A stretch of 64,000 nt of DNA from Escherichia coli (GCF_013122565.1 NZ_CP053258.1), one strand, 5' to 3'. Positions 25,259-51,382 are shown, numbered from the stretch's first letter. Numbers and translations are program-made. Notes: generated by a model not told the origin, from the sequence alone.

Positions 25259-25277
25259 ATGGCAAGGTTTGTAACCT

Positions 25278-25315: not shown

Positions 25316-25336
25316 CACCACGTATGGACAGAGATC

Positions 25337-26287: not shown

Positions 26288-26371
26288 GCCTGATGTGCCA
26301 CGCTTATCAGGCCTACAAGGTTTCTGCAATATATTGAATTAGCACGATTTTGTAGGCCGGATAAGGCGTTT
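26288..26371. repeat. REP/BIME cluster downstream of cysM (left portion; interrupted by IS)
   Basis: PU copies gcctgatgtgccacgcttatcaggcctac and tgtaggccggataaggcgttt; the last unit continues after the IS as acgccgcatccggc. Confidence 0.8.
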
Positions 26372-27126
<755 letters not shown>

Positions 27127-27230
27127 ATCAGCATACTTGTCCTTAGCCTTCTGCAGTGACAGCTGGTAGTACAGCGTGCTTCTGGCCAGCCCTGCAGCCT
27201 TTAACAGGTCAGACTGGCAGTGTCCGCACT

Positions 27231-27761
27231 TCAGGCTCTGGATGACTTTCGTTTTTTCTCCAGCTCCTGGCGCTTTTTTTCCAGGAGATGCTCCTGCATG
27301 GCTTTCAGATATGCATTTTCTGCGCGAAGATAACGCAGCTCATTCTTCATCTCTTCCGGCGTCATGTTTGCCTCGTTTTCATGGGTATCATCAGAACGGG
27401 TCATGCTTTTCTCCTTCCTGCGCCTGATAAAGGCCTCATTACCAGATTTGCGGTAGCCTTTTATCCAGTTTTTAACCATGTTGTGGCTGGGAATGTTAAA
27501 CCGGGCAGCTACCCGGGGTAGAGACTCAGAATGCCCGAGAGCATAAAGAACCACGCAAAGTTTATCTTCAGGAGAATAGCTACGCTTGTGTCTGCAATCC
27601 AGTGCCTGAGGACCGTGAAGAAGAAAAAGATTAATCCAGTGTGAGAGGCTGGTGTGAGAAAGTTGAAAGAGTTTTGCCGTAGAAAGGATGCCTGCATGAC
27701 CGGCCAGGTAATGATTTACAGCGGCAAGTTTTACTTCAAATGAATGTTTCATAAACTGCAC
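27231..27761 (-). CDS. IS transposase OrfA (HTH + leucine-zipper region)
   Basis: 176-aa ORF; C-terminal heptad-like LRYLRAENAYLKAMQEHL; contains slippery heptamer near its 3' end. Confidence 0.8.
   Translation of the reverse strand: MQFMKHSFEVKLAAVNHYLAGHAGILSTAKLFQLSHTSLSHWINLFLLHGPQALDCRHKRSYSPEDKLCVVLYALGHSESLPRVAARFNIPSHNMVKNWIKGYRKSGNEAFIRRRKEKSMTRSDDTHENEANMTPEEMKNELRYLRAENAYLKAMQEHLLEKKRQELEKKRKSSRA
27274..27280 (-). other. Programmed -1 ribosomal frameshift slippery heptamer A_AAA_AAG (orfA to orfB)
   Basis: Minus-strand codons GAA AAA AAG CGC within orfA (..LLEKKRQEL..) read directly. Confidence 0.6.
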
Positions 27762-27803
27762 CTTCAGATGTCAGATTATGTCCAACATTTGGGGTGCAGT
27801 TCA

Positions 27804-27822
27804 GTTTACGCCGCATCCGGCA
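27804..27822. repeat. Right half of the REP unit split by the IS insertion
   Basis: gtttacgccgcatccggca completes the canonical REP core when joined to 26351-26371. Confidence 0.75.
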
Positions 27823-32975: not shown

Positions 32976-33947
32976 TTACTGTTGCAATTCTTTCTCAGTG
33001 AAGAGATCGGCAAACAATGCGGTGCTTAAATAACGCTCACCCGATGATGGTAGAATAACCACAACATTCTTGTTGGTAAAGCTTTCATCTTCTTGTAGTT
33101 TCAACGCCGCAGCAACAGCTGCTCCAGAAGAGATACCTGCAAGAATACCTTCTTCTTCCATTAGACGACGGGCGGTAGAAATGGCTTCTTCATTGGTGAT
33201 GCCAATGACTTTATCGACCAGCTTGAGATCGAGGTTAGCCGGGATAAAACCAGCGCCAATACCCTGAATTTTATGCGGGCCAGGTTTAATCTCTTCACCT
33301 GCCAGCGCCTGGGCGATAACTGGAGAATCGGTTGGCTCAACGGCGACAGAGATAAGATCGGTCTTGCCTTTAGTGCCTTTAATGTAGCGGCTAACGCCAG
33401 TCAGCGTACCGCCAGTCCCAACGCCAGCAATAAATACATCAACCTGACCGTCGGTATCTTCCCAGATCTCCGGACCGGTGGTTTTTTCGTGAATTTCAGG
33501 GTTTGCCGGATTGCTGAATTGTTGCAGCAGCAGGTATTTATCTGGATTGCTGGCGACAATTTCTTCTGCTTTTTGGATTGCGCCTTTCATGCCTTTAGCA
33601 CCTTCGGTCAGCACCAGGTTTGCACCTAACGCTTTCAGCAGCTTGCGGCGTTCAATACTCATGGTTTCTGGCATGGTCAGGGTAAGTTTGTAACCGCGAG
33701 CGGCAGCGACATAGGCCAGTGCAATCCCGGTATTACCGCTGGTTGGTTCAACCAGTTCAACGCCTGGTTTAAGCACGCCGCGCTTTTCGGCATCCCAAAT
33801 CATGTTGGCACCGATACGGCACTTAACGCTGAAGCTGGGGTTACGAGATTCCACCTTCGCCAGAATGCGTCCGTTACCGATGCGATTCAGGCGAACCAGC
33901 GGCGTGTGACCGATAGTCAGCGAGTTATCTTCAAAAATCTTACTCAT
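32976..33947 (-). CDS. cysK: Cysteine synthase A (O-acetylserine sulfhydrylase A) CysK
   Basis: 323-aa PLP-enzyme ORF. Confidence 0.97.
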
Positions 33948-34131
33948 GGCCTGTCCTTAACTGTATGAAATTGGGATACAACAGGTAGCATACCCGCTCA
34001 GAGAATATGCGGAAGTAAGGATTTAGCATATCTATATGCAGAAGGGAAATAATGACATGCAAGATGGAATAAGGGGCGGCATAAGCAACCCCTGTTTCAC
34101 ACAAGCGGTTTACAAAATAACCGGTAGATTG

Positions 34132-34893
34132 TTACCGCCACATCGCGTGTTTATCGCGATAGCAATCGACCCACATCGCCGTCGCGCCACAAACGGCAAC
34201 GGGCATGATGAACAGATTAAGCAGAGGGATCATCGTAAACAGGCTGGTTAAAGCACCAAACTGCATATTGGTGATTTTGCGTGTGCGCAGGGCGGTGCGC
34301 ATCTCTTTAAACGGCACTTTGTGGTTATCGAAGGGGTAATCGCAATACTGGATGGCTAACATCCAGGCGCTAAACAGGAACCACAGTACCGGCGCGACGG
34401 TTTGCCCAATACCAGGGATGAAGTAAAGAATTAGCAATACAATTGCGCGCGGCAGATACCAGGCAAATTTTTGCCATTCGCGTTTCATGATTCGCGGCAC
34501 ATCTTTCATGATACCGAAAATCCCGGTATCTGGCGGTGTAGCGCCAGTCAGTCTTGCTTCCAGTTGTTCAGCCAATAAACCGTTAAACGGAGCGGCAATC
34601 CAGTTAGCAATCGTTGAGAAGAAATAGCCAAACACTAACAGCACAGAGATGACAGCCAGAGGCCACAACAGATAGCTCAGCCATTGTAACCAGTCCGGAA
34701 CATAACTCATGAGAGTCGGGATCCAGACATCGAGTTGCGTAAAGAGCCACCAGAATGCGCCCCCCATCAACAAAATATTGACCAGCAGCGGTAAAATAAC
34801 GAAACGCCGAATCCCTGGTTGCGAGACGAGCTTCCAGCCTTGCGCAAAATAGTAAAAACCGCTGCGTGGGGCAGATGTGAATGATGAAACCAT
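34132..34893 (-). CDS. cysZ: Sulfate transporter CysZ
   Basis: 253-aa membrane ORF upstream of cysK. Confidence 0.93.
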
Positions 34894-35122
34894 AATCAGG
34901 ATGAGCTCCTTTTGACCAATCCCAGGAAAATTCTGCGTATTTTACCGGGTAATTGCGCAATGGACAGTTAGGATATGTTCGAAAAAACAGCAAAAAGCAC
35001 GATTTCATCTATCTTTGTGCTGTGAAAGTTAATAGTGCACTTGCACTTGAGGTAATCGGCAAATACTCTTAGTGAGTAAATGTTTGCCGTGGTGGCAAGG
35101 TGTTAGAACAACAGAGAATATA

Positions 35123-36121
35123 ATGATGCAGGATTTGCGTCTGATATTAATCATTGTTGGCGCGATCGCCATAATCGCTTTACTGGTACATGGTTTCTGG
35201 ACCAGCCGTAAAGAACGATCTTCTATGTTCCGCGATCGGCCATTAAAACGAATGAAGTCAAAACGTGACGACGATTCTTATGACGAGGATGTCGAAGATG
35301 ATGAGGGCGTTGGTGAGGTTCGAGTTCACCGCGTGAATCATGCCCCGGCTAACGCCCAGGAGCATGAGGCTGCTCGTCCGTCGCCGCAACACCAGTACCA
35401 ACCGCCTTATGCGTCTGCCCAGCCCCGTCAACCGGTCCAGCAGCCGCCTGAAGCGCAGGTACCGCCGCAACATGCTCCGCGTCCAGCGCAGCCGGTGCAG
35501 CAACCCGTGCAGCAGCCTGCCTATCAGCCGCAGCCTGAACAGCCGTTGCAGCAGCCAGTTTCGCCACAGGTCGCATCAGCGCCGCAGCCAGTGCATTCAG
35601 CACCGCAATCGGCACAACAGGCTTTCCAGCCTGCAGAACCCGTAGCGGCACCACAGCCTGAGCCTGTAGTGGAACCGGCTCCAGTTATGGATAAACCGAA
35701 GCGCAAAGAAGCGGTGATTATCATGAACGTCGCGGCGCATCACGGTAGCGAGCTAAACGGTGAACTGCTTCTTAACAGCATTCAACAAGCGGGCTTCATT
35801 TTTGGCGATATGAATATTTACCATCGTCATCTTAGCCCGGATGGCAGCGGCCCGGCGTTATTTAGCCTGGCGAATATGGTGAAACCGGGAACCTTTGATC
35901 CTGAAATGAAGGATTTCACTACTCCGGGTGTCACTATCTTTATGCAGGTACCGTCTTACGGTGACGAGCTGCAGAACTTCAAGCTGATGCTGCAATCTGC
36001 GCAGCATATTGCCGATGAAGTGGGCGGTGTAGTGCTTGACGATCAGCGCCGTATGATGACTCCGCAGAAATTGCGCGAGTACCAGGACATCATCCGCGAA
36101 GTCAAAGACGCCAACGCCTGA
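35123..36121 (+). CDS. zipA: Cell division protein ZipA
   Basis: Trimmed to ATG 35123 ([18 protein letters not shown]...); N-terminal TM anchor, P/Q-rich linker, C-terminal FtsZ-binding domain. Confidence 0.93.
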
Positions 36122-36151
36122 TACACTTAAGGCAAATTAACTCCTCTTCGA

Positions 36152-36175
36152 ACCCCCGCTTGTCGGGGGTTTTTA
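36152..36175 (+). terminator. zipA-distal hairpin
   Basis: acccccgcttgtcgggggttttt. Confidence 0.6.
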
Positions 36176-36182
36176 GCATTGA

Positions 36183-38207
<2,025 letters not shown>

Positions 38208-38208
38208 G

Positions 38209-38427
38209 ATGGAAAAAGAGCAGCTGATTGAAATAGCCAATACGATAATGCCGTTTGGCAAATACAAAGGGCGTCGCTTAATCGACCTGCCGGAGGAGTA
38301 TCTGCTGTGGTTTGCCCGCAAAGATGAGTTCCCGGCAGGGAAGCTCGGTGAGCTAATGCAAATCACGCTGCTGATTAAAACCGAGGGGCTGACGCAACTG
38401 GTCCAGCCCCTGAAGCGTCCGCTTTAA
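38209..38427 (+). CDS. ypeB: Small protein YpeB (DUF3820)
   Basis: Trimmed to ATG 38209 (MEKEQLIEIANTIMPFGKYKGRR...), 72 aa, immediately after ligA stop. Confidence 0.8.
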   Translation: MEKEQLIEIANTIMPFGKYKGRRLIDLPEEYLLWFARKDEFPAGKLGELMQITLLIKTEGLTQLVQPLKRPL

Positions 38428-39422
38428 GCTTTATCGGCGCTGCTTTCCTGCTGCGCCTGTAACTGTTCGGTCTGGCGTTTGTATCGACGCGCCAGCACCG
38501 CACAGACCATCAATTGGATCTGATGGAAAATCATCAGGGGCAGCACCATCATACCGATCACCGATGTGGGGAACAGAATGTTTGCCATCGGGATGCCATT
38601 TGCCAGACTCTTTTTCGAACCACAAAAGACGATAGTAATTTCATCTGCTTTATTGAAGCCCAGTCGGCGTGCCATAAAGACGTTAACTACAATCACGATA
38701 GCCAGAAGAACGCAGCTGGCCACCACGATAAACAGCAATGATCCCCAGCCAACTTTATGCCAGATACCATTAACGACGGCTTCGCTGAACGCTGTATAAA
38801 CCACCAACAGAATGGACGTCTGGTCAGTTTTCGCAATCCATTTTTTATTGCGCGACACCCAGTCACCAATCCACGGCCGGGAAAGATGCCCTAACACAAA
38901 CGGCAGCAACAGTTGCAGCATAATTTTACCGACCTGCTCAAGGCTGCCCCCTGCACCGTGAACATTCATCACCAGGCCAACCAACAATGGTGAAAGGAAA
39001 ATCCCCAGCAGGCTGGATGCCGACGCAGAACAAACCGCCGCCGCGACGTTACCGCCCGCCATTGACGTGAAGGCGATTGCAGACTGCACGGTCGCGGGGA
39101 GAATGCACAAGTAGAGAAAACCGGAGTAGAGCATCGGGTCGACATTTACCGGTTTCCACCAGGCAAACAGCACGCCCAGAATCGGAAACAGCACGAAGGT
39201 GCTGCACATTACCCACAAATGCAGTCGCCAGTGACCACCGCCAGCAATAATCGCCTCACGCGACAACTTCGCGCCGTGCATAAAGAACAGCAGGGCAATC
39301 GCTGCGGTGGTCAGATTTTCAAAGAAGGGGACGAAATCGCCTCTGGCCGGAAAGAAAGAGGCCAACAACACCACCGTGATCAGGGTTAAGGTGAAAGGAT
39401 CGAGGATACGAAAAAGTTTCAT
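38424..39422 (-). CDS. yfeH: Bile acid:sodium symporter (BASS) family transporter YfeH
   Basis: 332-aa polytopic membrane ORF. Confidence 0.9.
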   Translation of the reverse strand: MKLFRILDPFTLTLITVVLLASFFPARGDFVPFFENLTTAAIALLFFMHGAKLSREAIIAGGGHWRLHLWVMCSTFVLFPILGVLFAWWKPVNVDPMLYSGFLYLCILPATVQSAIAFTSMAGGNVAAAVCSASASSLLGIFLSPLLVGLVMNVHGAGGSLEQVGKIMLQLLLPFVLGHLSRPWIGDWVSRNKKWIAKTDQTSILLVVYTAFSEAVVNGIWHKVGWGSLLFIVVASCVLLAIVIVVNVFMARRLGFNKADEITIVFCGSKKSLANGIPMANILFPTSVIGMMVLPLMIFHQIQLMVCAVLARRYKRQTEQLQAQQESSADKA

Positions 39423-39939
39423 AAAGACTCCAGATGATCGATGCTTTCATTGTGCGTTGTTCTGATTGATAAATAAAACTGAATTGCTTATCAATTTGTG
39501 CGCGAGGAGTGTGAGTGAGTTGCTCGCTCGCTTCGACTGGTTGGCAGAGCGGGGGAGGATATCCCGGATGAGACAAATAAGACGTTCGACAAGAGAATCA
39601 GGTGACTACAGAAAAAATCACAGGATGTTATTACTGCTGATGTTCATGTCGGTTTTCGCGTTATCAGAACTGGTTTTAGAACTGCTATTTAATCGATAAT
39701 GCCATTCTGCAGGAAAGCTTTACCTACTTTATTATTTGCGGTGTGGTAAAACCTGGTCACCAGAGGCAGGTTTAATACCAGACGCTGTCTTTTATCAGAT
39801 ATCCCATGTAAATAATAAATGCAATGAATATTAATTCATTATGTATTTATTTTGTGATTGTTTGGTGTTACTAGTTTGTTGGACAAATAACAACTCTAAC
39901 TAATACATAAACCTTGCATAGTGACAGAGTATCGATCTG

Positions 39940-39977
39940 AATGTTTTCAACATTGATATCAAATTGCAATTGATATC
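39940..39977. promoter_or_regulatory. Candidate operator upstream of the NupG-like transporter: inverted repeat ATGTT-ttc-AACAT followed by two TTGATATC palindromes spaced 17 bp
   Basis: Read directly: gaATGTTttcAACATTGATATCaaattgcaaTTGATATCcg, 75-110 bp upstream of the 40051 start. Confidence 0.35.
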
Positions 39978-40050
39978 CGTGGTAAAAAGTATTGGTAAAT
40001 TTGATGAATTTCCGGATATTTAAAGGGGCGGCTCAAAGACGAAGGGGAAG

Positions 40051-41307
40051 ATGGTGAATCTAAAACTACAGTTAAAAGTTCTTTCATTTCTGCAATTCTT
40101 TTTGTGGGGAAGTTGGCTCAACACATTCGGTTCTTATATGTTTATCACGCTGCGTTTTAAGGGCGAAGATATAGGCGCAGTCTACAGTACACTGGGTATC
40201 GCAGCATTAATAACATCAACGTTATTTGGTATCGTGGCCGATAAATGGATTAGTGCTAAATGGATATATGCCGCTTGTCATTTATTTGGCGCGATAACAT
40301 TATTTATCGCAGCATCGGTTACCACGCCTTCGGCAATGTTCATTGTCATTTTACTTAACTCTCTTGTGTATATGCCAACACTCGGTTTGAGTAATACAAT
40401 TTCCTATTACCGCCTACAAACAGCGGGGATGGATATTGTGACAGAATTTCCGCCAATCCGTATCTGGGGCACGATTGGATTTATTGTCGCAATGTGGGCG
40501 GTTAGCCTGGCTGGTTTTGAATTAAGTCATATGCAATTATATATCGGTGCGGCGGCTTCATTAGGCTTGAGCCTGTTCACGTTGACTTTACCAACTGTAC
40601 CAGTGGCGAAATCTAACCAGGCGCAAGGAATGATAGATGTTCTCGGATTGCGTGCATTTACACTGTTTAAAAACAGCAAAATGGCGATTTTCTTTATCTT
40701 TGCCATGCTGCTCGGGGCAGAGTTACAAATTACCGGGATGTTTGGTAATACATTTCTCCACAGCTTTGAGAGCGTTCCAGAGTTTACCAATAGTTTTGTT
40801 GTTACCCATGCTTCTATTCTGTTATCAATTTCTCAGATATCCGAAGTCTGTTTCATTCTTGCCATTCCTTTTTTCCTGAAAAAATACGGTATCAAAAATG
40901 TCATGCTGATGAGCATGGTGGCCTGGATGCTGCGTTTTGGTTTATTCGCTTATGGCGATCCTTCATTCGGTGGTACCATTCTGTTAATTCTTTCGATGAT
41001 TGTTTATGGCTGTGCTTTTGACTTCTTCAATATATCTGGCTCGGTATTTGTTGAACAAGAAGTTGATCCATCGATTCGTAACAGCGCTCAGGGCGTTTTC
41101 CTGATGATGGCCAATGGTTTTGGTTGTATTCTGGGCGGTTTTATCAGTGGTAAAGTCGTCGATTATTTAACAACGGATGGCAATCCACAGTGGTCAACCA
41201 TTTGGCTGGTATTTGCCGGATATTCACTGGTTCTGGCTCTCGCATTTATGGTGTTGTTTAAATATAAACACAACGGTAACCCGACAACGTCCGGTCATTT
41301 CGCCTGA
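40051..41307 (+). CDS. Nucleoside:H+ symporter, NHS family (NupG/XapB paralog)
   Basis: 418-aa 12-TM-like ORF; near-collinear similarity to recalled NupG and to XapB encoded 2 kb downstream (e.g. LQFFLWGSWL, FPPIRIWGTIGFI, GCAFDFFNISGSVFVEQEV). AT-rich codon usage. Confidence 0.85.
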   Translation: MVNLKLQLKVLSFLQFFLWGSWLNTFGSYMFITLRFKGEDIGAVYSTLGIAALITSTLFGIVADKWISAKWIYAACHLFGAITLFIAASVTTPSAMFIVILLNSLVYMPTLGLSNTISYYRLQTAGMDIVTEFPPIRIWGTIGFIVAMWAVSLAGFELSHMQLYIGAAASLGLSLFTLTLPTVPVAKSNQAQGMIDVLGLRAFTLFKNSKMAIFFIFAMLLGAELQITGMFGNTFLHSFESVPEFTNSFVVTHASILLSISQISEVCFILAIPFFLKKYGIKNVMLMSMVAWMLRFGLFAYGDPSFGGTILLILSMIVYGCAFDFFNISGSVFVEQEVDPSIRNSAQGVFLMMANGFGCILGGFISGKVVDYLTTDGNPQWSTIWLVFAGYSLVLALAFMVLFKYKHNGNPTTSGHFA

Positions 41308-41361
41308 TACGGAGTTTATCAAAATTAATAATGTTTTATAGGATTCGCAAAAGAGGAAGTT

Positions 41362-42273
41362 ATGGCAAATCAATTGTATAACCAGTGTCGGGTTTATTGT
41401 GCACCCTGGCGATTAGATGCTTTAAATTTAAATGATATCATTGATCAATGGATTGACGAGGGGCTGTTGCCGCCCCTGATCCATACTTTTCTTCCATATC
41501 GCGATGATGCCGGTGCCTCCAGTGAAGAAGAGATTTTTGTTAACGATGTCGCGAATATGGATAACAGTGTTGGGGTTATCGGTTATTTCGATGGTGGAAC
41601 CTATGATTCCGGTTATGCATGGGCTTTAGGGATGCCTGTTCACCTGGTAACGACAGACTTTCTTATATGGGCAGCGGGGAATTCTTCAGAGTTTTATCCT
41701 ATAAGTAAGCTGATGAATTATGTGGCAAAAGTGGTTTCTGTGTCAGATTCCGATACCAGTATCAGCAATTATCGTGAACAAACCGACGATATCATCAAGC
41801 GTGCGTTGCAAATTTTTCAACAAAATTTAATCGCCGACTTCGGCACGACGATTAATCCAGCAGTACCGGTTACTCCATTGCCGATTGAGTATGACTACTA
41901 TATTGATCCTAACTTTATGTATACCGAACCCTCTCGGGACTTACTGGTGAAGATCAAAGATGCGATCATTAGTGCAGGTAAGACTTTCATCGTTGGCGAC
42001 AACATGAATGATATTGCGACTGATATTGATAACTTAAGAAAATCCAGACAGGCCATCTTTTATTCCGATACCTTTGAGCCGAATGTTGACACCGGCATTA
42101 TGAATGGTATTGCCTATGCATTAGGACAGCAATCGATTATTTATTGTAGCAAGCAACAAAAATATCAATCTGCGCTCGCGACAGATTATTTAAATTTAAT
42201 GATTACCTGGTCGTCAACGGTGGCGCATTCATTTGCGGAACTTGAAACATTGATTGGTAACACAGAAAAATAA
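41362..42273 (+). CDS. Hypothetical protein with two tandem nucleoside 2-deoxyribosyltransferase-like repeats
   Basis: 303-aa ORF with RBS agaggaag; internal repeat ([DS]G..[YI]A[WY]ALG at ~aa 80-95 and ~aa 255-270) resembling the NDT/DNPH1 D-x-G-..-E-x-G-Y-A-x-A-x-G-K-P-V motif. Fold assignment is inference. Confidence 0.6.
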   Translation: MANQLYNQCRVYCAPWRLDALNLNDIIDQWIDEGLLPPLIHTFLPYRDDAGASSEEEIFVNDVANMDNSVGVIGYFDGGTYDSGYAWALGMPVHLVTTDFLIWAAGNSSEFYPISKLMNYVAKVVSVSDSDTSISNYREQTDDIIKRALQIFQQNLIADFGTTINPAVPVTPLPIEYDYYIDPNFMYTEPSRDLLVKIKDAIISAGKTFIVGDNMNDIATDIDNLRKSRQAIFYSDTFEPNVDTGIMNGIAYALGQQSIIYCSKQQKYQSALATDYLNLMITWSSTVAHSFAELETLIGNTEK

Positions 42274-42284
42274 TAGTTAATTTT

Positions 42285-42330
42285 ACTGATTATCAGGTGA
42301 GTGATTGCCTGATAATCAGCTTTTTGTTAG
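42285..42330 (+). terminator. Rho-independent terminator after the 303-aa gene
   Basis: Perfect 12-bp inverted repeat CTGATTATCAGG...CCTGATAATCAG followed by ctttttg. Confidence 0.65.
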
Positions 42331-42501
42331 CCACCAAAGAAAAATATACTGCCGTTATATTTCTCTGCCGGGGAACGATATGATCGATTTCAAAATTATA
42401 TTGAATATCTCTGGAAAATGTATTGGTCACTCGCGACTTTTTCTCGCTATAAAAAAATGTGACTCAGATCTAACGCATAATGCTTATTACAAGGACTTGC
42501 C

Positions 42502-43335
42502 ATGACCCAATCTCATTTTTCACAAAACCCGTGGTATTGCGCAGATATCATTCGTCGTCATAAACCAGACTTTACCCCACGCGTTGCGTTTATTTTGGGT
42601 TCGGGACTGGGAGCGCTGGCTGAACAAATAGAAGACGCAGTTGCCATTTCTTATAGCGATTTGCCGGGGTTTCCGGTGAGCACCGTACACGGCCATGCAG
42701 GAGAGTTGGTCCTCGGCGTGCTTTCTGGTGTGCCTGTAGCCTGCATGAAAGGTCGCGGTCATTTTTATGAGGGCCGGGGAATGACTGTCATGACTGATGC
42801 TATTCGCACGTTCAAGTTGCTGGGCTGTGAATTGTTGTTCTGCACTAACGCTGCAGGTTCGCTTCGCCCGGAAGTAGGGGCGGGTAGTCTGGTTGCGCTG
42901 AAAGATCACATTAATACGATGCCAGGCACACCGATGACAGGCCTTAATGATGAGCGTTTTGGTGAACGTTTTTTCTCATTAGCGAATGCTTACGATGCTG
43001 ATTACCGCGCCGTTTTACAAACCGTCGCGCATGAAGAAGGTTTTCCGCTGACAGAAGGGGTTTTTGTTTCTTATCCGGGGCCGAACTTCGAAACGGCGGC
43101 AGAAATTCGCATGATGCAGCTGTTTGGTGGCGACGTAGTAGGTATGTCTGTAGTGCCTGAAGTGATTAGCGCACGTCATTGCGAAATGAAAGTCGTTGCC
43201 GTGTCAGCAATAACCAACATGGCGGAAGGCTTAAGCGATGTGAAATTGTCGCATGCCCAAACCCTGGCTGCAGCAGAGTTATCACGACAAAACTTTATTA
43301 ATTTGATTTGCGGATTCTTACGCAAAATCGCCTGA
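42502..43335 (+). CDS. xapA: Xanthosine phosphorylase (purine nucleoside phosphorylase II) XapA
   Basis: 277-aa PNP-family ORF; xapAB-xapR synteny. Confidence 0.93.
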   Translation: MTQSHFSQNPWYCADIIRRHKPDFTPRVAFILGSGLGALAEQIEDAVAISYSDLPGFPVSTVHGHAGELVLGVLSGVPVACMKGRGHFYEGRGMTVMTDAIRTFKLLGCELLFCTNAAGSLRPEVGAGSLVALKDHINTMPGTPMTGLNDERFGERFFSLANAYDADYRAVLQTVAHEEGFPLTEGVFVSYPGPNFETAAEIRMMQLFGGDVVGMSVVPEVISARHCEMKVVAVSAITNMAEGLSDVKLSHAQTLAAAELSRQNFINLICGFLRKIA

Positions 43336-43392
43336 AAACAATAAAAATGGCCTCGCGGATGGGGCCATCTCTCTGCGATAAGGAAACGAAAA

Positions 43393-44640
43393 ATGAATAT
43401 CGCAACGCGTTTAAAGGTAATGTCTTTCTTACAATATTTTATCTGGGGGAGTTGGTTAGTTACCCTCGGATCTTACATGATAAACACCTTACATTTTACC
43501 GGGGCTGATGTCGGTATGGCATACAGTTCTAAAGGCATTGCGGCCATTATTATGCCAGCCATTATGGGCATTATTGCCGATAAATGGTTACGGGCTGAAC
43601 GTACCTATATGCTGTGTCACTTAATTTGTGCCGGGGTGCTTTTTTATGCCGCCTCCGTAACTGAACCGAATATGATGTTCTGGGTGATGTTGCTTAACGC
43701 GATGGCTTTCATGCCCACGATTGCGTTATCCAACAGTGTTTCCTATTCGTGCCTGGCGCAGGCCGGATTAGACCCAGTCACCAGTTTTCCGCCAATCCGT
43801 GTTTATGGCACCGTGGGATTTATTGTCGCAATGTGGCTGGTGAGTTTATTGCATCTGGAGTTAAGTAGTGTGCAGTTGTATATCGCTTCTGGAGCATCTT
43901 TAGTGTTAGCGATCTATGCATTAACATTACCGAAAATTCCAGTGGCGGAACATAAAGCCAGTACGACGCTTTCCAGTAAATTAGGCCTGGATGCGTTTGT
44001 GTTATTTAAAAATCCGCGTATGGCGATTTTCTTTTTATTTGCTATGTTATTAGGTGCGGTACTGCAAATTACTAACGTTTTTGGTAATCCTTTCCTGCAT
44101 GACTTTGCCCGCAATCTTGAGTTTGCTGATAGCTTCGTGGTGAAATATCCATCCATTTTGCTCTCGGTTTCACAAATGGCGGAAGTCGGCTTCATTCTTA
44201 CCATTCCATTCTTCCTGAAGCGTTTTGGCATCAAAACCGTCATGTTGATGAGTATGGTAGCGTGGACGTTACGCTTTGGCTTCTTTGCCTTTGGCGACCC
44301 ATCGGCAGGTGGCTTTGTATTATTGTTGTTGTCGATGATTGTGTATGGCTGCGCGTTCGACTTTTTCAATATCTCCGGTTCAGTGTTTGTCGAGCAAGAA
44401 GTGGACTCCAGGATCCGCGCCAGCGCTCAGGGTTTATTTATGACTATGGTCAATGGCGTTGGGGCGTGGATTGGTTCTCTTCTGAGTGGCATGGCAGTTG
44501 ACTATTTCACGGTTGATGGCGTGAAAGACTGGCAAACCATCTGGCTAGTATTTGCTGCGTATGCACTGGCCTTAGCGGTGATTTTTGCCCTGTTCTTCCG
44601 TTATAAGCATGAACCTGATAAATGGCGCAGAAATCATTGA
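43393..44640 (+). CDS. xapB: Xanthosine permease XapB (NHS family)
   Basis: 415-aa membrane ORF downstream of xapA. Confidence 0.93.
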   Translation: MNIATRLKVMSFLQYFIWGSWLVTLGSYMINTLHFTGADVGMAYSSKGIAAIIMPAIMGIIADKWLRAERTYMLCHLICAGVLFYAASVTEPNMMFWVMLLNAMAFMPTIALSNSVSYSCLAQAGLDPVTSFPPIRVYGTVGFIVAMWLVSLLHLELSSVQLYIASGASLVLAIYALTLPKIPVAEHKASTTLSSKLGLDAFVLFKNPRMAIFFLFAMLLGAVLQITNVFGNPFLHDFARNLEFADSFVVKYPSILLSVSQMAEVGFILTIPFFLKRFGIKTVMLMSMVAWTLRFGFFAFGDPSAGGFVLLLLSMIVYGCAFDFFNISGSVFVEQEVDSRIRASAQGLFMTMVNGVGAWIGSLLSGMAVDYFTVDGVKDWQTIWLVFAAYALALAVIFALFFRYKHEPDKWRRNH

Positions 44641-44716
44641 CTCACTGATGTAAACAGGGTTTTCCTTGATTGCAATGTGCTAAGTTTGCAGCCTTACCCA
44701 TACCGCGTGGAGCGCA

Positions 44717-45607
44717 ATGATTATGGAAGGTACGCATCGTATTGATCTCAAGTTATTGCGCTATTTTCTTGCGGTCGCAGAAGAACTTCACTTTGGGCGG
44801 GCCGCTGCGCGGCTGAATATGTCGCAACCGCCATTAAGTATTCATATTAAAGATCTGGAGCAACAGTTGGGCACGTTGCTGTTCGTTCGTCATTCGCGCA
44901 GTGTGGCGCTCACTCATGCGGGGAAAATTTTACTGGAAGAGTCACGTCGTCTGCTGGCTAATGCCAGTCAGGCGTTGGCACGAGTAGAACAGATCGGTCG
45001 TGGTGAGGCAGGGCGCATTGAGCTGGGCGTGGTGGGAACCGCAATGTGGGGGCGAATGCGTCCGGTAATGCGGCGGTTTTTGAAAGAGTGCCCTAATGTT
45101 CATGTCTCATTTCGTGAAAAATCACCAGGGATGCAAATGGCATTGCTCGAGCGGCGGGAGCTGGACGCGGGTATCTGGCGGATGGCAATTGAACCCACGA
45201 CGGGATTTACCAGTCTGCGATTACACGAATCTTCGTTTTTGGTGGCGATACCGGAAGATCATCATCTGGCTTGCGAAAACGCTATCCCGTTAATGGCATT
45301 ACGCAATGAATACTTTGTGACGCTGCCATCGGTCCATTCCGACTGGGCGTTTTTACAGCGTGTCTGTCAGCAGGCAGGGTTTTCACCGATGATCGTTCGG
45401 GAGGCCGTAGAACCGCAAACCGTACTGGCGATGATCAGTATGGGGCTGGGTGTGACATTAATGGCAGATAGCTATGCCCAAATGAGCTGGCCGGGTGTGG
45501 TATTTCGTCCACTCGAGGAACGTATTCCAGCAGATTTGTATATTGTTTATGAACAGCAACAGGCAACACCAGCGCTGGAGAGATTAGTTAATGCTTTGAT
45601 AGCATGA
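44717..45607 (+). CDS. xapR: LysR-family regulator XapR
   Basis: 296-aa ORF with N-terminal LysR HTH (LKLLRYFLAVAEELHFGRAAARLNMSQPPLS); exact start uncertain. Confidence 0.85.
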   Translation: MIMEGTHRIDLKLLRYFLAVAEELHFGRAAARLNMSQPPLSIHIKDLEQQLGTLLFVRHSRSVALTHAGKILLEESRRLLANASQALARVEQIGRGEAGRIELGVVGTAMWGRMRPVMRRFLKECPNVHVSFREKSPGMQMALLERRELDAGIWRMAIEPTTGFTSLRLHESSFLVAIPEDHHLACENAIPLMALRNEYFVTLPSVHSDWAFLQRVCQQAGFSPMIVREAVEPQTVLAMISMGLGVTLMADSYAQMSWPGVVFRPLEERIPADLYIVYEQQQATPALERLVNALIA

Positions 45608-45626
45608 AAGAAGATATCGCAGATAG

Positions 45627-45654
45627 CAAAAAAGCGCCTTTAGGGCGCTTTTTT
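45627..45654. terminator. Bidirectional terminator (xapR on +, tRNA operon on -)
   Basis: aaaaaagcgcctttagggcgctttttt. Confidence 0.7.
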
Positions 45655-45658
45655 GCAT

Positions 45659-45734
45659 TGGTGGGTCGTGCAGGATTCGAACCTGCGACCAATTGATTAA
45701 AAGTCAACTGCTCTACCAACTGAGCTAACGACCC
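45659..45734 (-). tRNA. lysV: tRNA-Lys (anticodon UUU)
   Basis: Reverse complement folds as tRNA: GGGTCGTTAGCTCAGTTGG... anticodon loop CTTTTAA ...CCA. Confidence 0.95.
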
Positions 45735-45738
45735 GAAG

Positions 45739-45814
45739 TGGTGGGTGATGACGGGATCGAACCGCCGACCCCCTCCTTGTAAGGGAGGTGCTCTCCCAGC
45801 TGAGCTAATCACCC
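45739..45814 (-). tRNA. valY: tRNA-Val (anticodon UAC)
   Basis: Reverse complement GGGTGATTAGCTCAGCTGGGAGAGCACCTCCCTTACAAGGAGG...CCA; copy 1 of 3 identical genes. Confidence 0.95.
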
Positions 45815-45860
45815 ACTTCGGTACTTCACATTTTTACAAGAAATTTAGCTGGCGAGAAAG

Positions 45861-45936
45861 TGGTGGGTGATGACGGGATCGAACCGCCGACCCCCTCCTT
45901 GTAAGGGAGGTGCTCTCCCAGCTGAGCTAATCACCC
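45861..45936 (-). tRNA. valX: tRNA-Val (anticodon UAC)
   Basis: Identical copy 2. Confidence 0.95.
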
Positions 45937-45980
45937 ACTTCTCAATTTCTTGCTACACGGCGGAGACTACATAAAGTAGT

Positions 45981-46056
45981 TGGTGGGTGATGACGGGATC
46001 GAACCGCCGACCCCCTCCTTGTAAGGGAGGTGCTCTCCCAGCTGAGCTAATCACCC
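45981..46056 (-). tRNA. valU: tRNA-Val (anticodon UAC)
   Basis: Identical copy 3 (promoter-proximal on minus strand). Confidence 0.95.
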
Positions 46057-46314
46057 CCGCTGTGTGGAGTCGCATTATAGGGAGAGTTCAAAATGAGTCA
46101 ACGCATTTTCTAAAGAAATTGTTCGTTCGTCGTAAATTTAAGCAAGATGATCGCAAAACAGACCGTGTTGCGCAATTTGTCAACGAAAACAATAATGCGT
46201 AAGGTTGCAACCCGAACTACATTGAGGAATCAGGCGGGAGTGATAGAATATCGCCCACTCAATTTTTCCAGGATTTGCCGGTTGTCGGCATCTTTCTAAA
46301 CGTAAGGCCATTTC

Positions 46315-47730
46315 ATGAAAATCAAAACTCGCTTCGCGCCAAGCCCAACAGGCTATCTGCACGTTGGCGGCGCGCGTACTGCTCTTTACTCCTGGCTTTT
46401 TGCACGTAATCACGGCGGTGAGTTCGTGCTGCGTATTGAAGACACCGATCTTGAGCGTTCCACGCCGGAAGCTATCGAAGCCATTATGGATGGCATGAAC
46501 TGGCTGAGCCTGGAGTGGGATGAAGGTCCGTACTTCCAGACCAAACGTTTTGATCGCTACAACGCGGTGATCGATCAGATGCTGGAAGAGGGCACAGCTT
46601 ATAAATGCTATTGCTCTAAAGAGCGCCTGGAAGCGCTGCGCGAAGAGCAAATGGCGAAAGGTGAGAAGCCGCGTTATGACGGTCGCTGCCGCCACAGTCA
46701 TGAGCATCACGCTGATGATGAGCCGTGTGTCGTACGTTTTGCTAACCCGCAGGAAGGTTCTGTTGTTTTTGACGATCAGATCCGTGGTCCGATCGAGTTC
46801 AGCAACCAGGAACTGGACGATCTTATTATCCGCCGTACCGATGGTTCCCCAACCTATAACTTCTGTGTGGTTGTCGATGACTGGGATATGGAAATCACCC
46901 ACGTTATCCGTGGCGAAGACCATATCAACAACACGCCACGCCAGATCAACATTCTTAAGGCCCTGAAAGCGCCAGTGCCGGTTTACGCGCACGTTTCTAT
47001 GATCAACGGCGATGACGGTAAAAAACTGTCCAAACGTCACGGGGCGGTCAGCGTAATGCAGTATCGTGATGACGGTTATTTGCCAGAAGCACTGCTGAAC
47101 TATCTGGTGCGTCTGGGCTGGTCCCACGGCGATCAGGAAATCTTCACTCGTGAAGAGATGATCAAATACTTCACCCTGAATGCCGTCAGCAAATCTGCCA
47201 GTGCGTTCAACACCGACAAGCTGCTGTGGCTGAACCATCACTACATTAATGCGCTGCCGCCGGAGTATGTTGCTACTCACTTACAGTGGCACATTGAGCA
47301 GGAAAATATCGATACCCGTAACGGCCCGCAGCTGGCTGAGCTGGTGAAACTGCTGGGCGAACGCTGCAAGACGCTGAAAGAGATGGCACAGAGCTGCCGT
47401 TATTTCTACGAAGATTTTGCTGAGTTCGATGCCGACGCCGCGAAAAAACATCTGCGCCCAGTAGCGCGTCAGCCGCTGGAAGTGGTTCGTGACAAACTGA
47501 CTGCGATTACTGACTGGACCGCTGAAAACGTTCATCACGCTATTCAGGCGACGGCGGATGAGCTGGAAGTGGGTATGGGTAAAGTTGGTATGCCGCTGCG
47601 TGTCGCCGTAACCGGTGCGGGGCAGTCTCCGGCACTGGATGTTACCGTTCACGCAATCGGTAAGACCCGCAGTATCGAGCGTATCAACAAAGCTCTGGCT
47701 TTTATTGCGGAACGTGAAAATCAGCAGTAA
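46315..47730 (+). CDS. gltX: Glutamyl-tRNA synthetase GltX
   Basis: 471-aa class I aaRS ORF; HIGH-type (HVGGART) and KMSKS-type (KLSKR) motifs seen. Confidence 0.97.
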
Positions 47731-47748
47731 TTAGCGCATAAAAGATAA

Positions 47749-47778
47749 ACGGCAGGAGAAATACCCCTGCCGTTTTTT
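47749..47778. terminator. Bidirectional terminator between convergent gltX and yfeD
   Basis: aacggcaggagaaatacccctgccgtttttt. Confidence 0.7.
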
Positions 47779-47780
47779 AT

Positions 47781-48173
47781 TCATGCTGATTCATCTATGT
47801 CGAGACGAGCAAGGAAATTACGAATTCCTTCGCGTGACAAAAATTGCGCAACTTTTTCCTGCTCACTGTGAGTCATGTTGTCTATTGCGCTGATGATTTG
47901 CCGATAAGCAGGAGTGCGAATCCCCGGTGCGTATTCGGCAAGGGGTTCTTCGGCTTCCAGAAGCATCGGTGTGTTATGGAAGGCTGGCGTGTTCTGAATA
48001 AACTCGCAAACTTGCGTATCGACCAGAATAAGTCTGGCACGACCGCCTTTCACGCCGGGAAATTTTTCCGTTTTCCAGCCTTTTTCTCTGATCCAACGGT
48101 TAACAGTTTGTTTAGCCACACCGAGGCATTCAGCCAGTTCTTCGGTGGTCATTTTATTGCGTAATCTTTTCAT
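47781..48173 (-). CDS. yfeD: DUF1323 HTH protein YfeD
   Basis: 130-aa ORF; paralog of the adjacent yfeC (shared ...EELAECLGVAKQTVNRWIREKGW... core). Confidence 0.85.
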   Translation of the reverse strand: MKRLRNKMTTEELAECLGVAKQTVNRWIREKGWKTEKFPGVKGGRARLILVDTQVCEFIQNTPAFHNTPMLLEAEEPLAEYAPGIRTPAYRQIISAIDNMTHSEQEKVAQFLSREGIRNFLARLDIDESA

Positions 48174-48174
48174 A

Positions 48175-48519
48175 TTATTTGCTATCGCGAATCCCTAAGC
48201 GTTGTAACAATCCGATAATCCCTTCCCGCAGAAGCAAGGATGTAAACTGTTTTTGTTCAACTGGCGTCATCTCTTTCGCCAGTGTCACCAGCAATACTTC
48301 AAGCGGCGCATCACCAGAAAGGGCAGGCGTTTCTCCCTGACTTTCCGGACGTTCAGCATTGCGAATATATTCACGAACCTGTTCATTGACGTGAACCAGT
48401 CGGGCTTTGCCACCCTGGACGCCAGGTTTTGGTGACGTTGTCCAGCCTTCCTTGCGTACCCATTTATTAATGGTCTGGCGGCTATAGCCGGTCAGTCTGG
48501 CAAGTTCATCTGGCGTCAT
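48175..48519 (-). CDS. yfeC: DUF1323 HTH protein YfeC
   Basis: ORF 48175-48534; start placed at second Met (MTPDELARL...), upstream ATG at 48534 also possible. Confidence 0.8.
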   Translation of the reverse strand: MTPDELARLTGYSRQTINKWVRKEGWTTSPKPGVQGGKARLVHVNEQVREYIRNAERPESQGETPALSGDAPLEVLLVTLAKEMTPVEQKQFTSLLLREGIIGLLQRLGIRDSK

Positions 48520-48754
48520 CCTCTCCTTGAACATAACAATTCCCTGAATGTATGTGGGTCTATTAGTAGTTCATTTTATAACACCACTTTACAGGAAACC
48601 GTGACATGAATAACTACTGAATGCGAGCGGTTTTCCAAAATTGTTCATTTGCCTGATTTTTCAGCGATTGAAACTACACGTTGCAATTTGCCGTTGACAC
48701 ATTCGGACGGAATTCATATGATGCCGCCCGTCAACTCGACAAGCTTTACGTGAC

Positions 48755-48830
<76 letters not shown>

Positions 48831-48869
48831 AATTTTGCACCCAGCAAATTTGGTACGTAAACGCATCGT

Positions 48870-48945
<76 letters not shown>

Positions 48946-48952
48946 AATTTCA

Positions 48953-48980
48953 AACCCTCGCTGCAAAGCGGGGGTTTTTT
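48953..48980 (+). terminator. Terminator of the tRNA-Ala operon
   Basis: aaaccctcgctgcaaagcgggggtttttt. Confidence 0.65.
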
Positions 48981-49152
48981 GTCTCTGCTTTTTGCCGCTT
49001 TTGTAATACAGTCTATGTTCGGGTTAGCGCCGCCTGGTGAAAGCATCATTGGATGAAAAATCGGCAACAGGCTGGCCCCTGTTTGCTTCGCGATGCGAAT
49101 AAACTTATTATTTGTGTGCCTGAAAACCCCGATCAGTGAGAGTAGTGTACTC

Positions 49153-51342
49153 ATGTTTGTGGAGCATAACCTGATAAAAAATATCAAGATATTCACACTA
49201 GCGTTTACGCTCACCGTGGTACTTATTCAGCTATCCCGTTTTATTTCGCCACTTGCTATTATCCATTCCAGTTATATCTTTCTGGCGTGGATGCCACTGT
49301 GCGTAATGCTGTCAATCTTGTTTATCTTTGGCTGGCGCGGTGTCGTTCCCGTTTTATGCGGAATGTTTTGCACCAATCTGTGGAACTTTCATCTCTCTTT
49401 TTTACAGACTGCGGTCATGCTCGGCAGCCAGACGTTTGTCGTGTTGTGTGCCTGCGCAATATTACGCTGGCAGCTAGGGACGCGTTGGCGTTATGGATTG
49501 ACCAGCCGATATGTCTGGCAACGTCTGTTCTGGCTTGGTTTGGTGACGCCGATCGGCATCAAATGCAGCATGTATCTTGTGGGGAGCTTCTTTGATTTCC
49601 CGCTAAAGATTTCCACCTTTTTCGGCGATGCGGATGCCATTTTCACGGTCGTTGATTTGCTAAGCCTTTTCACCGCGGTGCTGATTTACAACATGCTTTT
49701 CTACTATCTCACTCGCATGATTGTAAGTCCCCACTTTGCGCAGATATTGTGGCGCAGGGATATCGCTCCGTCGTTGGGCAAAGAGAAACGCGCATTTACC
49801 TTAAGCTGGCTGGCAGCGTTAAGCGTGCTGCTACTTCTGTTGTGCACACCTTATGAAAACGACTTTATTGCCGGTTACCTGGTACCCGTTTTCTTCATCA
49901 TCTTTACCCTCGGGGTCGGTAAGCTTCGCTATCCGTTTTTAAATCTCACCTGGGCTGTTTCAACGCTTTGCCTGCTGAATTACAACCAGAACTTTTTACA
50001 AGGGGTGGAAACCGAATATTCGCTGGCATTTATTCTCGCGGTGCTGATTTCCTTTAGCGTTTGCCTGCTCTATATGGTGCGCATTTATCATCGCAGTGAA
50101 TGGCTTAATCGACGCTGGCATTTGCAGGCGCTGACCGATCCGTTAACGCTCCTACCCAACTTTCGTGCGTTGGAACAAGCACCGGAGCAAGAGGTGGGCA
50201 AGAGTTTTTGCTGCCTGCGCATTGATAATCTTGAGTTTATGAGTCGTCATTACGGGTTAATGATGCGCGTTCACTGTATCCGCTCAATTTACCGTACGCT
50301 GCTGCCGTTGATGCAGGAAAACGAAAAGTTGTATCAATTGCCGGGCAGTGAACTGCTGTTAGTGCTGAGCGGGCCGGAAACGGAAGGGCGACTCCAGCAT
50401 ATGGTTAACATCCTGAATAGTCGGCAAATTCACTGGAACAATACCGGGCTGGATATGGGCTATGGTGCTGCCTGGGGGCGTTTTGATGGAAATCAGGAAA
50501 CCCTGCAACCCTTGTTGGGGCAGTTAAGCTGGCTGGCGGAGCAATCCTGCGCACATCATCATGTGCTGGCGCTGGATAGCAGAGAGGAGATGGTTTCCGG
50601 GCAGACCACTAAACAAGTGCTATTGCTGAATACCATTCGCGCGGCGTTAGATCAGGGGGATTTGCTGCTCTACGCCCAGCCCATTCGCAACAAAGAGGGT
50701 GAAGGTTATGATGAGATCCTCGCGCGACTGAAATATGACGGCGGCATTATGACCCCGGATAAGTTTCTGCCCCTTATTGCTCAGTTTAACCTTAGCGCGC
50801 GTTTTGATTTGCAAGTGCTGGAATCCCTGTTGAAGTGGCTTGCAACACACCCTTGCGACAAAAAAGGTCCACGCTTTTCAGTCAATTTAATGCCGCTCAC
50901 GCTGCTGCAAAAGAATATTGCCGGGCGGATTATTCGTCTGTTTAAGCGTTATCACATCTCCCCGCAGGCGGTCATTCTTGAGATCACCGAGGAGCAGGCG
51001 TTTTCTAACGCAGAAAGCAGCATGTACAACATCGAGCAGCTGCATAAGTTTGGTTTCCGGATTGCGATTGATGACTTTGGCACCGGCTATGCCAACTACG
51101 AACGGTTAAAGCGTTTGCAGGCTGATATCATCAAAATTGATGGCGTCTTTGTGAAAGATATCGTCACGAACACGCTGGATGCGATGATTGTGAGATCAAT
51201 TACCGATCTGGCGAAAGCGAAGTCATTGAGTGTGGTCGCGGAGTTTGTCGAGACGCAACAGCAGCAGGCGCTATTGCATAAGCTCGGGGTGCAATATCTG
51301 CAAGGGTATTTGATTGGTCGCCCGCAGCCATTAGCTGATTAA
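49153..51342 (+). CDS. pdeA: c-di-GMP phosphodiesterase PdeA (YfeA): MASE1 membrane sensor, degenerate GGDEF, EAL
   Basis: Track ORF 49093-51342 trimmed to ATG 49153 (MFVEHNLIKNIKIF...), 729 aa; EAL-domain motifs (EIL..., DDFGTGYANY) seen. Confidence 0.9.
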   Translation: MFVEHNLIKNIKIFTLAFTLTVVLIQLSRFISPLAIIHSSYIFLAWMPLCVMLSILFIFGWRGVVPVLCGMFCTNLWNFHLSFLQTAVMLGSQTFVVLCACAILRWQLGTRWRYGLTSRYVWQRLFWLGLVTPIGIKCSMYLVGSFFDFPLKISTFFGDADAIFTVVDLLSLFTAVLIYNMLFYYLTRMIVSPHFAQILWRRDIAPSLGKEKRAFTLSWLAALSVLLLLLCTPYENDFIAGYLVPVFFIIFTLGVGKLRYPFLNLTWAVSTLCLLNYNQNFLQGVETEYSLAFILAVLISFSVCLLYMVRIYHRSEWLNRRWHLQALTDPLTLLPNFRALEQAPEQEVGKSFCCLRIDNLEFMSRHYGLMMRVHCIRSIYRTLLPLMQENEKLYQLPGSELLLVLSGPETEGRLQHMVNILNSRQIHWNNTGLDMGYGAAWGRFDGNQETLQPLLGQLSWLAEQSCAHHHVLALDSREEMVSGQTTKQVLLLNTIRAALDQGDLLLYAQPIRNKEGEGYDEILARLKYDGGIMTPDKFLPLIAQFNLSARFDLQVLESLLKWLATHPCDKKGPRFSVNLMPLTLLQKNIAGRIIRLFKRYHISPQAVILEITEEQAFSNAESSMYNIEQLHKFGFRIAIDDFGTGYANYERLKRLQADIIKIDGVFVKDIVTNTLDAMIVRSITDLAKAKSLSVVAEFVETQQQQALLHKLGVQYLQGYLIGRPQPLAD

Positions 51343-51350: not shown

Positions 51351-51382
51351 AAAAAGCCGGGGAATTATCCCCGGCTTTTTTA
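51351..51382. terminator. Bidirectional terminator between convergent pdeA and nupC
   Basis: aaaaaagccggggaattatccccggctttttt. Confidence 0.75.

Follow-up and report, generated by a model that had tools for sequence, protein, structure and literature searches.

A rare and deeply diverged haplotype of the xapABR locus in Escherichia coli

Background

Why should xapA, xapB and xapR of one Escherichia coli chromosome differ from their K-12 counterparts far more than the genes on either side of them? The question is raised by a stretch of 64,000 nucleotides (GCF_013122565.1, NZ_CP053258.1; hereafter the window), which represents 64 kb of E. coli chromosome in reverse orientation of K-12 2.50-2.57 Mb and exhibits the gene order eut, cys, ptsHI-crr, zipA, ligA, ypeB, yfeH and then, beyond the xap genes, lysV-valYXU, gltX, yfeDC, alaWX, pdeA and nupC. 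An earlier reading of this DNA (the original prediction) had placed xapA, xapB and xapR at 42502-45607, had described these genes as AT-rich and XapR and XapA as apparently more different from K-12 than the housekeeping proteins of the window, and had suggested that the whole interval from yfeH to xapR is a recombination-prone or variable nucleoside-catabolism island. Its coordinates and gene calls are correct: xapA (42502-43335), xapB (43393-44640) and xapR (44717-45607) are all intact open reading frames (ORFs) on the forward strand. The segment in which they lie (39486-45614) most probably constitutes a rare, deeply diverged allelic haplotype, here termed the star haplotype, of the ancestral enterobacterial yfeH-xapABR-tRNA-gltX locus, acting like K-12 xapABR.

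Results

Extent of the divergence from K-12

Homology to K-12 breaks off and resumes abruptly, in both cases at the boundary of a blastn block. Its left end lies at 39485, within the former yfeH-yfeR intergenic region and next to the conserved left anchor yfeH (38424-39422, reverse strand; 99.4% amino acid and 98.6% nucleotide identity to K-12); on the right, it restarts at 45615, 44 bp beyond lysV, i.e., beside the conserved transfer RNA (tRNA) cluster lysV-valY-valX-valU (45659-46056, reverse strand; found by ARAGORN and Rfam). The flanking blocks share 96.0-98.3% DNA identity with K-12, whereas blastn yields no close K-12 match anywhere in 39486-45614: the block covering xapA and xapB (42513-44567) is 77.5% identical and the xapR block (44744-45578) 72.5%. 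LigA, YfeH and GltX exhibit 99.1-99.4% protein identity to K-12, compared with 89.5% for XapA (75.5% in nucleotides), 89.4% for XapB and about 79% for XapR. The proportion of synonymous differences (pS) from K-12 amounts to 0.77-0.78 in xapA and xapB and to 0.81 in xapR, values that are saturated, versus 0.05-0.10 in the genes for LigA, YfeH and GltX; the nonsynonymous proportion (pN) of the xap genes is low (0.07-0.13). By blastn, protein identity and pS alike, the suspected excess of divergence over the flanking core genes is real, large and far beyond chance, and the identity of xapABR to K-12 does not equal that of its flanks.

The segment stands in for K-12 2521373-2526882. In K-12, the interval between yfeH and lysV consists of yfeR-yfeN-xapA-xapB-xapR, whereas in the window it consists of a yfeN-like remnant, a gene for a NupG-like permease, a gene resembling nucleoside 2-deoxyribosyltransferases (NDTs), xapA, xapB and xapR; no yfeR is present in this interval of the window. 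The gap between xapB and xapR measures 76 bp versus 251 bp in the K-12 type, where it holds a small ORF of the DUF1427 family.

Concerning the N-terminus of XapR, the reported departure from K-12 proved right (MIMEGTHRIDLK in the window, MERVYRTDLK in K-12). The leading "MI" of the ORF from 44717 (MIM...) is, however, probably due to an upstream in-frame ATG, because the alignment to the family model NF007439 starts at residue 3 and the RefSeq annotation of sister strains gives the gene 885 bp (294 amino acids); the true start would then be M3 at 44723, giving xapR the coordinates 44723-45607.

Family assignment of the star XapA, XapB and XapR

The star XapA (xanthosine phosphorylase) passes the equivalog model TIGR01699 with 510.8 bits (cutoff 370.9) over residues 27-274 and matches PF01048 (E=1.4e-43). 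An ungapped alignment with K-12 XapA shows that Tyr191 and Asn239 are both kept, which from structure work on the E. coli enzyme we take to be the residues of specificity. The star XapB, a nucleoside:H+ symporter of 415 amino acids encoded directly 3' of xapA, is matched over its full length by PF03825 (614 bits) and TIGR00889 (708 bits). XapR, a LysR-type activator, passes NF007439 (PRK09986 LysR model), presumably the XapR family, with 514.9 bits (cutoff 290) and contains both PF00126 (HTH_1) and PF03466 (LysR_substrate). Its helix-turn-helix (HTH) region is 88% identical to K-12 and its effector domain 70-74%. Within the star clade, the ratio of nonsynonymous to synonymous divergence (dN/dS) is 0.03-0.11, which places the star genes under purifying selection. 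Judged by family membership and predicted function, the star system is xapABR, and each defining feature that can be tested in sequence is found in it.

Putative XapR operators and the extent of the regulon

From Escherichia to Buttiauxella, the region upstream of xapA has a fixed architecture, ATYGAT-N11-ATTGAW-N14-GTATTGGT-N20-TATAAA. The operator pattern has exactly two matches in the window (39952-39996 and 42383-42427; 0 expected). Copy 2, with its promoter at 42383-42453 on the forward strand and 5' of xapA, reads ATCGAT-N11-ATTGAA-N14-GTATTGGT-N20-TATAAA. Copy 1 (39952-40022, forward strand) lies 5' of the NupG-like permease gene and reads ATTGAT-N11-ATTGAT-N14-GTATTGGT-N20-TATTTA, with a spacing equal to that in the xapA promoters of all genera examined. 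Every star locus covering this region contains two copies and K-12 one. For K-12 xapA, two XapR sites have been described, one of them overlapping the -35 region (PMC7205307); since the layout found here fits these sites and is conserved across genera, both sites in the window are predicted, from pattern match and conserved spacing, to be XapR operators and promoters.

Between the two units lies the strongest terminator-like site of the region, a hairpin resembling an intrinsic terminator (42286-42319, forward strand) with a stem of 15 pairs followed by CTTTTTG. It closes the permease-NDT unit and is kept in other star loci. As this unit is preceded by the same operator/promoter as xapA, the predicted XapR regulon of the star haplotype seems to be extended to the NupG-like permease and the NDT-like gene. 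A pair of NupG-like permease and NDT-like genes also occurs in Citrobacter, at a different locus beside an adenine deaminase gene (L066-L068, about 7266-9933), where it has a XapR-type operator with a single mismatch in front of it and a guanine plus cytosine (GC) content of 0.41-0.43.

Compared with K-12 xapABR, the star locus thus has the same position, gene order, orientation, equivalog-level families, and operator/promoter architecture and spacing; it differs in DNA (72-78% identity) and in XapR (79%), in lacking yfeR and having a mere remnant of yfeN, in the short xapB-xapR spacer without the DUF1427 ORF, and in the additional operon with a XapR box 5' of xapA.

Permease, NDT-like gene and yfeN remnant

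The permease gene (40054-41307, forward strand) encodes a NupG-like nucleoside:H+ symporter (NHS; PF03825 551 bits, TIGR00889 633 bits); its longest ORF begins at 40051, and the GTG at 40054 is the likelier start. The protein is 74% identical to K-12 NupG over the full length and 61% to XapB. It belongs to the same Pfam and TIGR family as NupG, but constitutes an extra copy at a different locus, with a XapR-type operator upstream and a GC content of 0.418.

The following gene (41362-42273, forward strand) was assigned by family and DNA alignments and by a fold match to a small family of tandem-domain NDT-like proteins of about 310 amino acids, with 152 representatives out of 1.84 billion, 19 of them at E<1e-10. 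The AlphaFold (AF2) model of an intact homologue (predicted local distance difference test score, pLDDT, 95.2) consists of two halves, and each of the solved NDTs (7o62, 8pqt, 1s2l) spans roughly one half of it (Foldseek probability 1.0, target template-modelling score, TM-score, up to 0.75), such that the NDT fold (PF05014) was recognized on this model. The NDT-like protein, searched as a single sequence, matched no solved structure; it took the family profile and the fold search to reach NDT structures. In the family profile, the motif D82-x-G84-x-x-x-E88-x-G90 aligns with the catalytic-Glu motif of the solved NDTs, and the predicted catalytic Glu does not vary among 53 family members; in the second half, the alignment reads N where the first half has this E. 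The family therefore shares the fold and the aligned motif with the solved NDTs, but differs from them in possessing two NDT-like halves in one chain.

In the window, an in-frame deletion of 18 bp between 41613 and 41614, situated between 13-bp near-repeats GGTT(G/A)TGCATGGG, removes GCAWEV and with it G84 and E88; LHM10-1, IAI39 and SCPM-O-B-8794 possess the intact allele. The window's protein scores 35 bits against PF05014, with no single stretch passing, and does not contain the catalytic Glu. Given the loss of G84 and E88, this copy of the enzyme is probably inactive.

The yfeN-like remnant (39676-39807, reverse strand) derives from a gene for an outer-membrane channel of the Tsx/OmpK family, annotated as OmpK where it is intact in IAI39. 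Only its 5' and 3' ends are kept: about 640 bp of the interior are deleted, and alignment with the intact gene of IAI39 and SCPM-O-B-8794 places window positions 39300-39740 and 39742-40100 at its two ends. Between yfeH and the permease promoter, identity to these two genomes falls to about 74-80%, far below the rest of the segment, which suggests a further mosaic boundary. The remnant and the deletion in the NDT-like gene indicate local decay of accessory parts in this lineage; xapABR are intact. A role of the cassette as a defence system was considered and rejected, as PADLOC gave no matches.

Three haplotypes among E. coli genomes

In a survey of 5426 complete E. coli genomes, 4073 carry K-12-type xapABR (counted with a K-12 query), about 1440 of them, e.g., SE15, as a sub-allele of 90-95% identity. 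A xap-less haplotype with yfeR and a flxA-like gene is found in 1308, O157:H7 among them. The whole star segment is present in 15, always between yfeH and lysV, and a copy truncated by IS1 in VE-T9. The three haplotypes of the yfeH-lysV interval are mutually exclusive in E. coli. A megablast figure of 1476 genomes at about 78% does not measure how many genomes possess xap, as it reflects the K-12-type sub-allele that shares a 28-bp word with the query. Identical junctions in 15 complete genomes rule out an assembly artefact or chimera.

Star loci have three different structures: SCPM-O-B-8794 possesses both yfeR and the yfeN-like gene, IAI39, CE10, AR_0013 and others possess the yfeN-like gene alone, and the window, LHM10-1, Z1323HEC0423 and others have neither of them intact. 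The haplotype is present as well in E. albertii and in one non-coli Escherichia genome. The xap loci of E. albertii, IAI39 and CE10 agree with the window in the two XapR boxes and in the terminator, with 95-99% protein identity; RefSeq lists their genes as xapA, xapB, LysR family regulator, nucleoside permease and nucleoside 2-deoxyribosyltransferase. Unlike the window, IAI39-type loci have the yfeN-like and NDT-like genes intact, and xapA and xapB of IAI39 differ by 4-5% in DNA.

The genomes nearest by the right flank (99.6-99.7%) differ in state: XJ5.2 carries the star segment, VE-T9 the truncated one, and PT62 is xap-less. No complete E. coli genome in the collection exceeds 98.9% identity in the left flank (33000-39450) or 99.7% in the right flank (45615-51300), which assigns the window to a lineage with few representatives; the genomes of the relatives nearest to it are small (4.57-4.8 Mb).

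Base composition

The AT-richness ascribed to xapABR holds weakly: the GC content of the span is 0.482 versus 0.526 +/- 0.033 in stretches of equal size outside the segment, 7.6% of which are as low. The clearly AT-rich part is the adjacent permease-NDT cassette (40051-42273), whose GC content of 0.412 is matched by no stretch of equal size elsewhere in the window; the whole segment has 0.443 versus 0.528 in the remainder. Compared with K-12, the GC content is 0.496 versus 0.517 in xapA, 0.452 versus 0.481 in xapB, and 0.513 versus 0.505 in xapR. In Citrobacter, Klebsiella and Pseudocitrobacter, too, the xap spans lie 3-6 GC points below ligA, and the low GC content is therefore a family trait. 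AT-richness is poor evidence where xapABR itself is concerned.

Synteny, phylogeny and probable exchange

The order ligA-ypeB-yfeH-(yfeR)-(yfeN)-xapA-xapB-xapR-gltX is kept in Citrobacter, Klebsiella, Enterobacter, Lelliottia, Atlantibacter, Silvania, Pseudocitrobacter and others, i.e., in more than 30 species and at least 10 genera. Two deep clades of Xap proteins exist, whereas the tree of LigA, GltX and YfeH groups all E. coli tightly. The star clade comprises the window, IAI39, SCPM-O-B-8794 and E. albertii (95-98.6% protein identity among themselves), and the other clade K-12, SE15, Escherichia sp. MOD1-EC7003 and Pseudocitrobacter vendiensis. Between the clades, identity is 89-91% in XapA, 88-91% in XapB and 78-83% in XapR, which is as distant as either clade is from Citrobacter or Klebsiella. 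The star XapR is 95-98% identical to that of E. albertii and of the rare E. coli copies, 86% to that of Salmonella and Citrobacter, and 83% to that of E. fergusonii; K-12 XapR is an outlier with 76-81% to all others except Pseudocitrobacter (91.8%).

Within the star clade, SCPM-O-B-8794, although deposited as E. coli, is only about 91% identical to the window in ligA and yfeH. Synonymous divergence (dS) between the two is 0.15-0.27 in the segment versus 0.35-0.46 in the flanks, so that the shared ancestor of the segment must be more recent than that of the genomes. Between the window and E. albertii, dS of the segment (0.56-0.84) is near that of gltX (0.48), as expected of vertical descent there. 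Z1323HEC0423, in which yfeN is deleted as well, shares 95-99.4% with the window in the segment (98.3-99.4% in the permease gene, xapA, xapB and xapR) and 96.7-98.9% in the flanks. With IAI39, DNA identity is 95-96% in xapA and xapB and 96-99% in the flanks, and dS is 0.18-0.21 and 0.09-0.16, respectively.

The K-12 type is itself diverse: between K-12 and SE15, dS is 0.53 in yfeN, 0.36 in xapA, 0.24 in xapB and 0.14 in xapR versus 0.06-0.12 in the flanks. In Pseudocitrobacter vendiensis, yfeR-yfeN-xapABR (L024, 5623-10882) exhibit 92-97% protein identity to the K-12 type and the flanks 87-95%. Its dS from K-12 is 0.24-0.64 in four of the five genes of the block and 1.25 in xapR, compared with 1.29 in ligA, 1.71 in yfeH and 0.81 in gltX. 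Most of the flanks are thus farther from K-12 than the block between them, which indicates that this block was passed between genera as a whole.

Variability and proneness to recombination, which the original prediction had ascribed to the yfeH-to-xapR interval, are hence borne out by the three haplotypes, by the different states of close relatives in the flanks, and by the raised diversity within the K-12 type.

Other features of the window

The yfeD-yfeC block on the other side of the tRNA cluster (47781-48173, yfeD) has 94.4% DNA identity to K-12 versus about 98% in the surrounding genes and is 98-100% identical to SE15, IAI39 and LHM10-1; it looks like another small mosaic patch. A block of 1.4 kb (26371-27804), absent from K-12 at this place, lies between a cysM-like ORF (25259-26248) and the next conserved ORF and contains, by its translation, two overlapping ORFs on the reverse strand that are typical of an IS3-family element (orfA 27231-27761, orfB 26404-27126). 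Two K-12 elements are absent from the window: the cryptic prophage CPZ-55 inside the eut operon, where blastn blocks join at about 6261-6268, and IS186C between nupC and pdeA, where they join at about 51360-51371.

Discussion

Probable replacement of the locus

No integrase, transposase, insertion sequence (IS), or att-like direct or inverted repeats are present in the segment, and Rfam yields tRNAs only. As the segment is without genes for mobility and occupies the usual position of the locus in Enterobacteriaceae, replacement by homologous recombination fits best, and we conclude that homologous recombination in the conserved flanks has repeatedly exchanged the interval. The star segment would have entered and moved among E. 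coli lineages via yfeH on one side and lysV-valYXU/gltX on the other, its source being another Escherichia lineage or an old polymorphism within the genus.

In this the original prediction went too far where "island" is understood as a foreign insertion: xapABR are syntenic across genera, integrase, IS and flanking repeats are lacking, and what varies is the allele. That a mobile genomic island integrated beside lysV by site-specific recombination is very improbable, in spite of its position next to a tRNA cluster, its low GC content (0.443), and a permease-NDT pair that has a high AT content in each of its hosts and that Citrobacter possesses at another locus. Against it stand the intact tRNA genes, a junction situated 44 bp past lysV, the lack of any integrase, transposase, att-like direct repeat or inverted repeat, and the presence of xapABR at this position in many genera; at most the permease-NDT module would have been inserted into the star haplotype on a separate, earlier occasion. 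It is hardly credible, moreover, that the star genes are a K-12 allele that diverged rapidly in place by relaxed selection or local hypermutation. XapR does evolve faster than the flanking proteins in all comparisons, and two neighbouring genes are damaged (the yfeN remnant and the NDT-like gene with its 18-bp deletion); however, synonymous sites are saturated while pN is 0.07-0.13 and dN/dS in the star clade 0.03-0.11, the ORFs are uninterrupted and score above the equivalog cutoffs, 15 other E. coli genomes, E. albertii and a further Escherichia lineage possess the same allele at 94-99% identity, and the divergence begins and ends sharply at 39485 and 45615. Fast evolution or pseudogenization of xap is ruled out by dN/dS, intact ORFs and model scores.

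A more serious alternative differs solely in the history of the locus and leaves the functional side of the explanation preferred here untouched: the star type may be the original Escherichia xap locus, retained in a few lineages, with most E. coli having later taken the K-12 type from a Pseudocitrobacter-like donor or having lost xap. The branching of the star clade mirrors the order of species (E. albertii outermost, then SCPM-O-B-8794, then E. coli), the distance to E. albertii in the segment is close to that in gltX, the star XapR is 86% identical to that of Salmonella and Citrobacter with K-12 XapR as the outlier, and yfeR-xapR of Pseudocitrobacter lie at a much shorter distance from K-12 than do most of its flanks. 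On the other hand, dS between the window and SCPM-O-B-8794 is in the segment about half of that in the flanks, which points to later exchange, and the K-12 type is also found in the close non-coli relative MOD1-EC7003. We regard retention as possible but not as the likelier history, and lean slightly towards introgression or exchange as the origin of the star type in E. coli.

Several points weigh against the interpretation of the segment as an exchanged haplotype that acts like K-12 xapABR. Both introgression and ancestral retention fit the data, and E. fergusonii has yet another lineage of XapR (83%). Whether the 15 star carriers represent one or several clades was judged from flanking DNA alone. 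The scan outside E. coli covered one genome per species, with patterns of the star-allele XapR, and absences carry little weight. The inducer of XapR could differ from that of K-12, because the effector domain is only 70-74% identical, and induction by xanthosine, binding of XapR and transport by the star alleles are predicted from sequence.

Proposed function and relation to known systems

If the star system works as in K-12, XapR, probably constitutive as there, would bind xanthosine or a related nucleoside and activate the xapA-xapB promoter through the two sites and, with its inducer, the permease-NDT unit as well. XapB would import xanthosine and the NupG-like permease nucleosides; XapA would split xanthosine into xanthine and ribose-1-phosphate, and an intact NDT-like enzyme would act on (deoxy)nucleosides.

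Joint movement of regulators with the genes they regulate, with gene trees discordant with the species tree, has been described by Price et al. 2008 (PMC2395238). The pattern is similar here, with a regulator accompanied by its genes and discordance of trees; however, that study worked between genera and families, whereas here the replacement occurred within one species, at one conserved locus, and with three coexisting haplotypes. No papers on the star haplotype, its distribution or the second XapR-box operon were found in the searchable literature, which is incomplete, and a search for links of xap with E. albertii, IAI39, phylogroup F or yfeN returned nothing relevant.

On a more speculative and rather doubtful level, the yfeR-yfeN-xapABR interval might be an old, possibly trans-species balanced polymorphism, maintained by selection of phages or colicins on YfeN with xap hitch-hiking, and with the star type as the form with the extended XapR regulon. 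If true, the permease and the NDT-like enzyme would provide a second salvage route for purine (deoxy)nucleosides, induced by xanthosine or a related nucleoside.

Implications

Pangenome pipelines will place alleles as diverged as these in separate gene clusters and thereby go wrong in counting which genomes have xap and which lack it. In PMC9602453, the table of phylogroups lists 0% xapB and xapR among the B2 isolates of that study; this fits poorly with the about 1440 genomes that have a K-12-type allele of 90-95% identity and may exemplify such a miscount. The understanding of the xap system itself is unchanged by the present results. They document the clean replacement of a whole locus in a "core-like" metabolic operon, in which one of three haplotypes is as far from K-12 as another genus, and, in two genera, an uncharacterized family of tandem NDT-like proteins that accompanies a NupG-like permease behind a XapR-type operator. 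With the operator conserved and the effector domain diverged by about 30%, the locus constitutes a natural experiment in the co-evolution of a LysR-type activator and its operator.

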